Shown one piece after another: positions 14,044 through 17,446 of a stretch of DNA of 64,000 nucleotides. A program made the translations under genes and the position numbers. The notes under the pieces are model-generated. The model did not search any database and was not told the origin of the DNA. It saw only the letters and a list, made by a program, of their open reading frames with translations. Source of the DNA: Escherichia coli (GTDB lineage: Bacteria; Pseudomonadota; Gammaproteobacteria; Enterobacterales; Enterobacteriaceae); assembly GCF_051903065.1 (NCBI RefSeq), contig NZ_CP178438.1; one strand, 5' to 3'. The number at the start of each line of letters is the position of its first letter. Positions within the stretch are counted from its first letter, which is position 1.

Positions 14044-14077
14044 CACATCATATACAATGACTCTGGAGGAAACTGTT

Positions 14078-14728
14078 TTGGCGATTCGTCTTCACAAACT
14101 GGCTGTTGCTTTAGGTGTCTTTATTGTTAGCGCTCCTGCCTTTTCGCATGGTCATCACTCACACGGCAAACCCTTAACAGAGGTCGAACAAAAAGCTGCT
14201 AATGGTGTTTTTGATGATGCCAATGTACAAAACCGAACGCTCAGTGACTGGGATGGAGTCTGGCAATCCGTTTATCCTTTACTGCAAAGTGGCAAACTTG
14301 ACCCCGTCTTTCAGAAGAAAGCGGATGCAGATAAAACTAAAACATTTGCTGAAATTAAAGATTATTATCACAAAGGTTATGCAACAGATATCGAGATGAT
14401 TGGCATTGAGGACGGCATTGTTGAATTCCATAGAAATAATGAAACAACATCCTGTAAATATGATTACGATGGATACAAAATACTCACCTATAAATCAGGC
14501 AAGAAAGGCGTTCGTTACTTATTCGAATGTAAAGATCCTGAAAGCAAAGCCCCTAAATATATACAATTTAGCGATCATATAATTGCACCACGAAAATCAT
14601 CTCATTTTCACATTTTTATGGGTAATGATTCACAGCAATCTTTATTAAATGAAATGGAAAACTGGCCAACGTATTATCCATATCAGTTGAGTAGCGAAGA
14701 AGTGGTCGAGGAAATGATGTCTCATTGA
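14078..14728 (+). CDS. zinT: Periplasmic zinc/metal-binding protein ZinT (YodA)
   Basis: His-rich HGHHSHG after the signal peptide. Start called at TTG 14078 ([13 protein letters not shown]) with GGAGGA 8 nt upstream; an in-frame ATG at 14057 is the alternative. Confidence 0.8.
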
Positions 14729-15070
14729 GTATTCTCATGATAACGCCTCGATGCCGCTTTAGTAAGTCATCATAACTGCCACTGGTCCATCCACAAACGC
14801 CACTGAACGCAAGCTAGCTACAGACACGCTCATCACTATGACGTGTCTGTATATTAATAAGCTAACCCGCATTGAGTTAACCAATAACGGATTCCATACA
14901 CAATACGGCCAACAGAGAAAGATACCTGTGCTCACGCCATTGCTTATATTGGCTGGTTACAATGTGCACTATCAATTTTTTAAATAACAAATTCTTAAAA
15001 CCACATCTGTATAAGGAATTTTTAAGGTTCGTGGGATAGCTTGACTGTGAAAATCACAGGAGCTACAAAA

Positions 15071-15601
15071 ATGAACCGATTCTCAAAAACTCAAATTTAT
15101 TTACATTGGATAACGCTGCTTTTCGTTGCAATAACCTATGCCGCGATGGAACTCCGTGGCTGGTTTCCTAAAGGTAGTAGTACTTATCTGCTAATGCGAG
15201 AAACACATTACAATGCGGGTATATTCGTTTGGGTGTTAATGTTTTCACGCCTGATTATAAAACACCGTTATAGTGATCCTTCTATTGTGCCACCGCCACC
15301 TGCCTGGCAAATGAAAGCGGCTTCGCTAATGCACATCATGCTTTATATAACCTTCCTTGCACTTCCTCTGCTGGGGATTGCTTTGATGGCTTACAGTGGA
15401 AAATCGTGGAGTTTCCTTGGTTTCAATGTGTCTCCCTTTGTTACCCCAAACAGCGAAATTAAAGCACTGATAAAAAATATTCACGAAACCTGGGCAAATA
15501 TAGGCTACTTTTTAATCGCAGCTCACGCTGGCGCAGCACTCTTTCATCACTACATTCAGAAAGATAATACTCTGTTACGAATGATGCCTCGCCGCAAATA
15601 A
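15071..15601 (+). CDS. yodB: Cytochrome b561 family protein YodB
   Basis: 176 aa from MNRFSKTQIYLHW; four TM helices with conserved His; AGGAGC RBS upstream. Confidence 0.8.
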   Translation: MNRFSKTQIYLHWITLLFVAITYAAMELRGWFPKGSSTYLLMRETHYNAGIFVWVLMFSRLIIKHRYSDPSIVPPPPAWQMKAASLMHIMLYITFLALPLLGIALMAYSGKSWSFLGFNVSPFVTPNSEIKALIKNIHETWANIGYFLIAAHAGAALFHHYIQKDNTLLRMMPRRK

Positions 15602-16170
15602 GTCGATCCCCTGACAAGGAAATGTGAACCATGGACATCAACGCGTCATAAATGTTTACGCAAGTGCACAATGCACCCTTTCCACTATCAACAAGGAGGA
15701 GCAGAAACTGTGTAAATCGTACAATGGTAAGACTTATCAAAAATACAGGTTAATTTTGGTATTTAAACCTTTTTTACTTGTTAGTATGATACAAAGGCTT
15801 TCAAAAAAGCTGGGAAATTCAACAACTCTTGGAAATTATGGACTTTGTCCCGCGGCTTTAATCTGACGGCCGCGTTCCTTTTTTGACTCAATTATTGACC
15901 CCTTCTCTACGCAACTTCAGTTCCCACCACCAACTTTGCGGCAGTTTCATAGGATGAATGTCTAAAAGAATAATGGTGAGCGATAAGAAAACGACTGAAT
16001 AACTGCACATTTTCGCTCGAAAGCTTCCTGTCAGATCCATAGCGAATCAAGTGCTGAATGTCACAGTATCGAATAGAAAACAGTGACGATCTAACCCTTC
16101 AAGAATATTCTACGATTGTTCTGTTTAGGAAAAGCAAGGCGGGAAGTCGGGAGATAAGTCATTGATAAAG

Positions 16171-16260
16171 TGGCGGAGAGAGGGGGATTTGAACCCCCGG
16201 TAGAGTTGCCCCTACTCCGGTTTTCGAGACCGGTCCGTTCAGCCGCTCCGGCATCTCTCC
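16171..16260 (-). tRNA. serU: tRNA-Ser (serU)
   Basis: Reverse complement reads GGAGAGATGCCGGAGCGGCTGAACGGACCGGTCTCGAAAACCGGAGTAGGGGCAACTCTACCGGGGGTTCAAATCCCCCTCTCTCCGCCA; long variable arm; CCA encoded. Confidence 0.9.
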
Positions 16261-16353: not shown

Positions 16354-17151
16354 ATGATTAAGTGGCCCTGGAAAGTACAAGAATCAGCACATCAAACTGC
16401 CCTTCCCTGGCAGGAAGCACTATCGATCCCCCTTTTAACATGTCTGACGGAACAGGAACAAAGCAAATTAGTCACTCTTGCCGAACGTTTTTTACAGCAA
16501 AAGCGGCTTGTTCCTTTACAGGGCTTTGAACTGGATTCATTAAGAAGCTGCCGGATAGCACTTCTATTTTGCCTACCCGTTTTGGAGTTAGGACTGGAAT
16601 GGCTGGATGGTTTTCATGAAGTCTTAATTTATCCTGCGCCATTTGTGGTCGATGATGAATGGGAAGACGATATCGGTCTGGTGCATAACCAACGTATTGT
16701 TCAGTCAGGTCAGAGCTGGCAGCAAGGGCCTATCGTTTTGAACTGGTTGGATATACAAGATTCTTTTGATGCTTCTGGTTTTAACCTGATTATTCATGAA
16801 GTCGCTCATAAGCTGGACACCCGTAACGGCGATCGCGCCAGCGGAGTTCCCTTTATTCCGTTGCGTGAGGTTGCTGGCTGGGAACACGATCTTCATGCTG
16901 CAATGAACAACATTCAGGAAGAAATCGAATTGGTTGGCGAGAATGCGGCGAGCATTGATGCTTATGCTGCCAGTGATCCTGCTGAATGTTTTGCCGTACT
17001 TTCTGAATATTTCTTTAGCGCCCCAGAACTTTTTGCTCCTCGTTTCCCTTCATTGTGGCAACGTTTCTGCCAATTTTATCAACAAGATCCTTTGCTGAGA
17101 CTGCATCACGCTAATGATACAGACTCGTTTTCGGCGACGAATGTTCATTAA
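16354..17151 (+). CDS. mtfA: Mlc-titration factor / zinc aminopeptidase MtfA (YeeI)
   Basis: 265 aa from MIKWPWKVQ; HEVAHKLD zinc-binding HExxH motif. Confidence 0.85.
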
Positions 17152-17413: not shown

Positions 17414-17446
17414 GCGCCCTCGACCTTTATGGTTGAGGGCGTTTTG
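17414..17446 (+). terminator. Intrinsic terminator after asnT
   Basis: CGCCCTCGACC...GGTTGAGGGCG stem plus TTTTG. Confidence 0.6.

Follow-up and report, generated by a model that had tools for sequence, protein, structure and literature searches.

A phage-related candidate small-RNA unit in the non-coding spacer between yodB and serU of Escherichia coli

The spacer between the stop codon of yodB and the tRNA gene serU (positions 15602-16170, 569 bp, of the window, which is the whole 64,000-nucleotide stretch of Escherichia coli contig NZ_CP178438.1 that was analysed) is a non-coding mosaic of three parts that holds no convincing small protein. Its central part is a self-contained unit that carries a predicted promoter, ends in a working intrinsic terminator, and has homologues in lambdoid prophages and plasmids. 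On balance, we favour the interpretation that this unit is an orphan small-RNA (sRNA) gene of the prophage type with an independent transcript of about 88 nt. The data behind this interpretation are the two terminators of the spacer, both published, together with homology, covariation and low polymorphism; promoter activity, the 5′ end of the RNA, and a function in trans are inferred. Window coordinates plus 2027297 give K-12 coordinates (NC_000913.3), and the spacer is 99.3% identical to that of K-12 MG1655. A first-pass annotation had described an unexplained spacer of 570 bp; the exact length is 569 bp, and its serU-proximal half is explained by a Rho-terminated trailer and a phage attachment (att) arm. 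The three parts are:

15602-15723, plus strand: yodB 3′ untranslated region (UTR), the right-hand tail of a yodB cassette, missing in yodB-less genomes
15724-15885, plus strand: self-contained RNA unit of ~160 bp, defined by homology and Term-seq
15886-16170, minus strand: serU 3′ trailer, with a Rho region and a phage att block

An Rfam scan of the spacer returned no known RNA family, and RefSeq annotates nothing inside it across the genomes listed. The fold of the spacer as a whole is unremarkable (z = -0.7 for the plus strand of 15602-15900 and -0.5 for the minus strand of 15724-16170). Termination points on opposite strands lie about 44 bp apart, with an intrinsic site at 15884 (+) and a Rho-dependent site at ~15928 (-).

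Terminator, predicted promoter and conservation of the RNA unit

The hairpin at 15851-15884 is a working intrinsic terminator, combining a GC-rich stem and a U-tract with an RNA 3′ end observed in vivo. The stem pairs CGCGGCT (15851-15857) with GGCCGCG (15868-15874) across a 10-nt loop and is followed by the run TTCCTTTTTT (15875-15884). Its seven base pairs, six G-C and one G-U, precede the tract UUCCUUUUUU, and the predicted folding energy is -11.2 kcal/mol. Only 1 of 200 shuffles of the 49-nt hairpin region folds as well (z = -2.8). The 8-nt loop limit of a simple terminator scan kept this hairpin, with its 10-nt loop, off the list. Term-seq data place an RNA 3′ end at K-12 2043181(+), which corresponds to window position 15884 and the last T of the run, and the flanking sequence listed for this end is exactly the 15851-15884 hairpin (Adams et al. 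2021, PMC7815308, supplementary file 1). Thus, the terminator-like hairpin and the 3′ end near 15885 that had been proposed from sequence are both confirmed. The end is classed as ‘orphan’. It scored 2241 and 1864 in the two conditions, out of three, that showed it, and is absent from the first table (PMC7815308). Judged from file order, the two conditions were probably lysogeny broth (LB) at an optical density (OD) of 2.0 and M63 medium.

Upstream of the terminator, the unit can be divided into the following elements, where SL denotes a stem-loop:

15724-15761, plus strand: upstream block, 83% identical to phage copies and kept in family alignments
15762-15790, plus strand: predicted sigma-70-type promoter from a promoter scan (-35 TTTAAA at 15762-15767, 17-nt spacer, -10 TATGAT at 15785-15790)
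15796-15884, plus strand: predicted RNA of ~88 nt, with the 3′ end from Term-seq and the 5′ end placed from the position of the -10 hexamer
15796-15811, plus strand: SL1, GGCUUU/AAAGCU
15812-15839, plus strand: unstructured linker
15840-15850, plus strand: SL2, GGACUUUGUCC
15851-15874, plus strand: SL3, the terminator stem-loop, with the U-tract at 15875-15884

The upstream block contains two palindromic motifs, TAAGACTTA (15728-15736) and AAATACAGGTTAATTT (15741-15756), and the phage counterpart of the latter, AAATTAAGGTTAATTT, is a perfect 7-2-7 palindrome. A perfect 9-nt inverted repeat is formed by TCAAAAAAG (15801-15809, in SL1) and CTTTTTTGA (15878-15886, at the U-tract). This repeat could pair the 5′ A-run with the 3′ U-tail, and it may have arisen by chance.

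The hairpin resembles the intrinsic terminators at the ends of long 3′ UTRs, and those shared with sRNAs, in its GC stem, its U-tract, and an RNA 3′ end that falls on the last U. It is situated 283 nt past the yodB stop codon and would be able to end the yodB mRNA. However, the spacer unit differs from such 3′ UTR elements in that a conserved predicted promoter of its own lies 60 nt ahead of the hairpin, and in that it occurs free-standing in phages and plasmids. Of the functions suggested in the first-pass annotation, a structured 3′ UTR and an sRNA are both supported by the in vivo terminator and by a conserved promoter-RNA-terminator unit with covarying helices.

Within the spacer, polymorphism in E. 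coli is lowest in the chromosomal unit. Segregating sites counted among 12 haplotypes are distributed across the spacer as follows:

15724-15761, upstream block: 9 of 38 positions
15762-15790, promoter: 0 of 29
15791-15885, RNA: 2 of 95
15886-16040: 29 of 155
16041-16170: 6 of 130

One of the two sites in the RNA is a change private to K-12, and the other lengthens the T-run. Variable positions number 2 of 124 nt in promoter and RNA together and 38 of 193 nt in the immediate flanks (Fisher p = 3.7e-7). Among 5,426 complete E. coli genomes, which served as the comparison set throughout, a 121-bp query over the unit is matched at ≥99% identity in 5073 of 5417 genomes, versus 2846 of 5423 and 4033 of 5405 for two further 121-bp queries taken from elsewhere in the spacer. 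In yodB-less strains, the unit resides behind an intact zinT terminator and is identical to the window copy across promoter and transcript, which argues against conservation merely as the terminator of an upstream gene.

Conservation across the Enterobacteriaceae, which had been proposed as a check, was not borne out. A BLAST search with the spacer against 80 loci anchored on MtfA recovered the sequence only in E. coli and, in part, in E. albertii. Homology in the inspected loci of other genera ends at the serU 3′ end or within about 20 bp of it, and the covariance model described below detected no copy in the scanned loci of those genera. The partial conservation in E. albertii includes the following gap:

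15775-15886, plus strand: 112-bp segment missing in E. albertii, with the direct repeat CCTTTTTT at 15768-15775 and 15877-15884

This gap is most simply explained as a deletion, since the phage homologues have the flanking and missing parts in one contiguous sequence.

A related RNA family in lambdoid prophages and plasmids

A 46-bp stretch around the hairpin is also found in a lambdoid phage, two plasmids, and the SerU-LTIIb prophage. An exact-pattern scan located this element in 76 viral contigs, and a looser pattern gave at least 120 matches. Phage vB_EcoS-683R6 is one carrier of the homologous unit. Homology extends well beyond the hairpin, as window positions 15728-15884 are ~70% identical to the lambdoid prophage element, with 15728-15769 and 15838-15883 reaching 83-87%. 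The phage-type unit is present in 236 of the 5,426 E. coli genomes, and the chromosomal copy in 5,417.

Members of this family share an architecture that begins with the palindromic upstream block and the promoter, followed by SL1 at about 6-7 nt past the -10 hexamer. The two hexamers and their 17-nt spacing are found in 33 of 34 aligned members and also in the copy on a Citrobacter plasmid, with the spacer fixed in length and variable in sequence. The -35 hexamer is TTTAAA, and the -10 hexamer occurs as TAgTAT, TAaTAT, TATGAT or TAAAAT. The sequence of SL1 varies while its pairing is kept. The linker is unstructured, A/U-rich, 20-28 nt long, and different in each lineage. It is followed by the invariant SL2 and then by the SL3 terminator hairpin with its U-run. 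Both SL2 and the loop of SL3 are conserved in sequence, beyond what pairing would demand.

Comparative sequence analysis supports these helices. A MAFFT alignment of 18 distinct sequences has 97.9% of its cells paired, versus 40-57% after sliding of the 3′ partners; compensatory change is seen at five pairs, and the covariation score is reached by none of 500 shuffles. A second set of 30 distinct sequences, aligned to the covariance model and therefore leaning towards it by construction, contains eight compensatory pairs, and none of 500 shuffles reaches any of five measures. The proportion of paired cells across the alignments is 94.8-97.9%. The covariance model was built from the MAFFT alignment with the Salmonella and Citrobacter plasmid copies left out, and it recovers both at full length (49.8 and 41.6 bits, respectively) in addition to the window copy (71.3 bits). 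Phage members also fold better than their shuffles (z = -2.5 and -3.4). These sequences constitute an RNA family for which Rfam has no model.

In prophages, the unit is located between the gene Q, or phage tRNA genes, and the holin gene, on the strand opposite the late genes, where no same-strand gene lies upstream to be terminated. It is followed by a second unit consisting of an SL2-like element and a terminator, and then by a convergent STnc100-like terminator. The second unit (L087 1550-1618; L166 4183-4251; L088 1547-1613, where L numbers denote individual loci) has the SL2-like sequence GGACTTTGTCC, a different terminator hairpin, and a run of seven T residues, and it scores ~20 bits with the covariance model in phages and in the Salmonella plasmid. 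It is possible that the phage and plasmid copies give rise to two nested 3′ ends. Two full units, separated by about 900 bp, occur in some viral contigs (L173, L095). The Citrobacter plasmid copy is followed, after 88 nt, by a same-strand gene for a helix-turn-helix (HTH) protein.

The genomic context of the phage members recalls the ‘moron’ site downstream of PR′, where convergent sRNA pairs have been described and where the anti-sRNAs AsxR and AgvB reside (Tree et al. 2014, PMC4104026). In an Rfam scan of Sakai Sp5, STnc100 and AsxR appear as such a convergent pair, with AsxR scoring 88 bits. Like AsxR and AgvB, the phage members sit past Q/PR′ and before the lysis genes, lie antisense to the late transcript, and converge with an STnc100-like unit. 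The family also resembles these anti-sRNAs in combining its own (predicted) promoter and a sequence-conserved 3′ terminator scaffold with a variable upstream pairing region. In contrast, AsxR and AgvB are 51-60 nt long, with a variable 5′ region of 14-18 nt and a conserved 3′ region of ~42 nt, whereas the family RNA is predicted to be ~85-95 nt long, has an extra 5′ hairpin, and carries a conserved 3′ region of ~45 nt that is unrelated in sequence. Furthermore, the copy beside serU is chromosomal, single, and outside any intact prophage, and only the phage members occupy a moron site. Identity with AsxR or AgvB was ruled out by this unrelated sequence and by the lack of a model match in either direction: the Rfam models for the two RNAs (RF02703 and RF02702) had no hits at E ≤ 1 in the window, L086 and L087, or at E ≤ 5 in L166, L088 and L089, and the family covariance model scored AsxR at 5 bits or less. 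The family thus resembles the anti-sRNAs in niche and design without being a member of that group.

The yodB cassette and the serU trailer

The unit is embedded in the following locus:

14057-14728: zinT
15071-15601: yodB
15602-16170: spacer from the yodB stop codon to serU
16171-16260, minus strand: serU, tRNA-Ser(CGA), identified by ARAGORN and Rfam
16354-17151: mtfA, beyond serU
beyond mtfA: asnT

The part of the spacer nearest yodB is a variable component of the genome. The spacer was found in 5,421 of the 5,426 genomes and is full length in 3,064 of these. Most partial spacers align from query base 123 onward, which is window position 15724, and 15602-15723 is missing from ~2,350 of the 5,421 genomes (~43%). 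Because yodB-less genomes match only from 15724, the sequence at 15602-15723 represents the tail of a yodB cassette. This cassette, at ~14860-15723 (~860 bp), is a presence/absence polymorphism. It is present in 3,064 of 5,421 genomes and lacking in B2-type E. coli strains (L002) and in E. albertii (L010). Strain MS8320, for example, has no yodB and instead carries ~220 bp of other sequence after zinT that joins the window sequence at 15724, and E. albertii has the same yodB-less arrangement. This linker from zinT to the RNA unit of ~220 bp lies at L002 2779-3000 and L010 5254-5483. The cassette tail holds the sequence AAGGAGG (15693-15699) and the GTG codon (15624) that opens an 80-codon frame, and the adjacent block at 15724-15761 occurs in two allelic forms that are linked to the presence or absence of yodB.

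The cassette also alters the end of zinT. The zinT terminator hairpin (AGACACG...CGTGTCT) is located at window 14822-14848 and at L002 2867-2893. In yodB-less strains it is followed by UUUUUUAUUAU and is an intact terminator with a folding energy of -17.1 kcal/mol. In the window, GUAUAUUAAU follows in place of a U-tract. The U-tract thus appears to have been removed by the yodB cassette, and zinT and yodB may be co-transcribed through the hairpin that lacks it.

Insertion hot spots are found at serU and in the spacer. In MS8320, which has an island with a tyrosine integrase, just 14 nt of the tRNA 3′ end remain beside the spacer (L002 3448-3461 onward), and in UTME-3 an insertion sequence (IS) of the IS3 type and prophage tail genes are inserted after spacer base 109, near position 15710 (L003 3110-4363). 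On the far side of the locus, just downstream of asnT, another ‘orphan’ Term-seq 3′ end lies near 17438 (K-12 2044735, plus strand); Adams et al. 2021 detected it under each of their three conditions. It follows a hairpin formed by GCCCTCGACC...GGTTGAGGGC and a TTTT run.

The segment at 15886-16170 is the 3′ trailer of serU and includes a Rho-dependent terminator, an assignment that follows from a mapped Rho peak together with a C-rich and G-poor proximal part. A strong Rho termination region is reported at 2043225(-), corresponding to window position 15928, with a Rho score of 39 and p = 2e-241 (Adams et al. 2021, PMC7815308, supplementary file 2). The position of this peak is coarse, as windows of 800 nt were used. 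DirectRNA-seq reads at this site are 7705/24 without bicyclomycin and 9053/1099 with the inhibitor, and thus downstream reads rise from 24 to 1099 (Adams et al. 2021). On the minus strand, the C:G ratio is 1.6 within the 130 nt of trailer next to serU (16041-16170) and 1.28 over the 243 nt of 15928-16170. The C-rich, G-poor proximal part is also the best-conserved portion of the trailer in E. albertii, at 84% identity.

Most of the trailer is shared with phages in the form of the following feature:

15893-16232: att block of 340 bp, comprising 278 bp of trailer and the 62-bp 3′ part of serU, identified by phage attP homology

The attP and attB sites of temperate phages that integrate at tRNA genes carry the 3′ part of the target tRNA gene. 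Lambdoid phages that integrate at serU have the att block in their attP region, with 96-97% identity in ev099, mEp332 and PhiR70_1. The ev099 homology reaches a further 116 bp, into the arm of the prophage that is found at the SerU-LTIIb junction, and at this junction an annotated 62-bp partial tRNA abuts the spacer. This sharing with attP explains the extra copies of the block in some genomes. Consistent with the general pattern for tRNA genes, the serU phages carry the 62-bp serU 3′ part and their junctions show a partial tRNA. The site departs from a usual attP in that identity runs 278 bp past the tRNA through the Rho-terminated trailer, which exceeds what is needed to rebuild the tRNA, and in the unusual distance of ~2 kb between the integrase gene and attP in ev099. 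The sequence between integrase and att block contains an AraC-family regulator gene and remnants of IS elements in both ev099 (L085 1451-2194) and mEp332 (L084 1001-1753). The gene serU has been cited as a phage insertion site (PMC8065619). A diverged orthologue in E. albertii suggests that the block is old at the serU site, and repeated exchange with phage alleles would be in keeping with the many variable sites of 15886-16040. The phages may have copied the block from the chromosome, or the chromosome may keep a prophage arm.

Alternative explanations and possible function

Several observations weigh against an independently transcribed sRNA. The fold of the chromosomal RNA alone is ordinary (z = -1.5, equalled by 16 of 200 shuffles), and its SL1 is weak, at -4.2 kcal/mol. 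The deficit of variable sites in promoter and RNA is not significant when the serU-proximal block is used for comparison (p = 0.28). The supplements of Cappable-seq and SMRT-Cappable-seq studies, which are possibly incomplete, list no start at K-12 20430xx-20431xx, and the similarly possibly incomplete supplements of a 2011 sRNA deep-sequencing study (Shinhara 2011; U00096.2 equivalents) list no small RNA there. The Term-seq scores are low (~1,900-2,200), the end is absent in LB at OD 0.4, and read-through from yodB or zinT could by itself account for a 3′ end at 15884. E. albertii lacks the -10 hexamer, the RNA and the terminator, and hence the unit is dispensable in that species. No target or binding protein is on record. 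A role as a sponge for the sRNA GcvB, proposed from a CAACAAC sequence in the linker that could pair with the R1 region, was rejected because the duplex of -12.9 kcal/mol is equalled by 19% of shuffles. The PIRT-seq supplement has no entry for the spacer, a literature text search for the RNA sequence string gave no match, and a complementarity scan for trans targets within the window returned merely a chance 12-mer of low complexity.

Many of the same observations would be expected if the hairpin serves only as a terminator for read-through from yodB or from zinT-yodB, the main alternative, which we consider possible and rather doubtful. The hexamers and 5′ hairpin would then be inert prophage relics, no separate RNA would be made, and conservation would reflect the advantage of keeping plus-strand transcription from colliding with serU. 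Read-through is plausible in yodB strains given the zinT hairpin without a U-tract, and a low-scoring 3′ end that is seen in stationary LB and minimal medium and not in exponential LB agrees with this explanation, as do the missing transcription start site entries and the deleted segment in E. albertii. In addition, the promoter scan yields no more sites than it does in shuffled sequences. However, a simple terminator does not explain why the -35 and -10 hexamers and their 17-nt spacing are invariant across diverged phage and plasmid copies, nor why polymorphism is absent from the promoter, SL1 and linker. Retention behind the intact zinT terminator in yodB-less strains would likewise be unexplained, and the phage copies have no upstream same-strand gene to terminate.

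Far less probable is a role as a cis-acting leader or attenuator of a downstream gene, or as a protein-binding DNA site of the old prophage. The same-strand HTH-protein gene that begins shortly after the Citrobacter plasmid unit would suit a leader, and the palindromes upstream of the promoter and the conservation of SL2 and the SL3 loop in sequence, rather than in pairing alone, would be compatible with either function. Yet, at serU and in the prophages, all that follows the terminator on the same strand is the second terminator unit, and the genes there are convergent. Moreover, the folds showed no alternative antiterminator pairing.

A translated small protein is the least probable explanation. 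Both candidate open reading frames (ORFs) exist. The 80-codon frame at 15624-15866 is in the ORF list as described and starts with GTG, and the peptide of the 26-codon ORF is as originally written, with its ATG at 15786-15788 and not at 15787. The AAGGAGG motif is likewise present where it had been reported. It cannot be the Shine-Dalgarno (SD) sequence of this ATG because it ends 86 nt upstream, and with no purine-rich stretch before the ATG, the description of the ORF as SD-preceded does not hold. The codons at a proper distance after AAGGAGG are CTG (15708) or a GTG-TAA start-stop pair (15710-15715). The latter begins 10 nt past the motif and, being in the cassette tail, is absent from yodB-less genomes. 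The ATG at 15786 falls within the -10 hexamer, upstream of the predicted RNA start, and neither frame nor start is kept in the phage and plasmid homologues owing to a 7-nt indel and sequence change. For the longer frame, both the start codon and the SD-like motif lie in the indel that is missing from ~43% of genomes. A protein search with the 80-aa frame found no relatives beyond sporadic E. coli ‘hypothetical protein’ calls, a Pfam scan of five spacer ORFs that included this frame gave no match, and the Ribo-RET/sORF supplement of Stringer 2021 has no entry at K-12 20429xx-20431xx. Two minus-strand ORFs, at 15888-16040 (50 aa with a hydrophobic stretch) and 15907-16050, were rejected because they have stops or many non-synonymous changes among the 12 haplotypes. 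YodE was also discarded as a resident small protein, as it is encoded in RyeG in prophage CPS-53, elsewhere in the genome.

If the unit is indeed an sRNA gene, it would descend from an old lambdoid element at serU and have been retained by essentially all E. coli. Its orientation is the same as in a prophage integrated at serU (L086), which is presumably what a decayed prophage would leave. The TTTAAA-17-TATGAT promoter would start an RNA of ~88 nt at ~15796. From its 5′ end, this RNA would consist of a hairpin, a variable A/U-rich linker that likely serves for pairing, the invariant SL2, and the GC-rich SL3 terminator, with transcripts ending at 15884. The same terminator would also halt any read-through from yodB or zinT before it enters serU in antisense orientation. 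On the other strand, Rho stops serU read-through in the trailer, of which a near-identical copy is carried in the attP of serU-integrating phages. By analogy with the prophage moron-site sRNAs, the RNA would most likely act in trans by base pairing. One route could be an action on host transcripts or sRNAs in the manner of an anti-sRNA, and another an action on the late transcripts of incoming phages that have the homologous antisense region. We put forward only tentatively, on the strength of this analogy, that the RNA has been domesticated from a prophage and belongs to the E. coli core genome as a functional sRNA that acts in trans. It is a similarly guarded suggestion that it is the chromosomal member of an undescribed lambdoid moron-site family with a fixed 3′ double-hairpin scaffold and a variable pairing linker.

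The practical result of this analysis is that a false small-protein candidate can be removed. In the att block, a phage attP carries a copy of the tRNA 3′ end together with the whole Rho-terminated trailer, a concrete example that bears on tRNA expression after integration and on the shielding of phage genes from read-through. If the unit has its own promoter, the conserved small RNAs of K-12 would grow by one unannotated member, with copies in 5417 of 5426 complete genomes, and this would be an example of a prophage regulatory RNA that has outlived its phage. As the family occurs at least 100 times in viral contigs, a single experiment at the serU locus would annotate many prophages.

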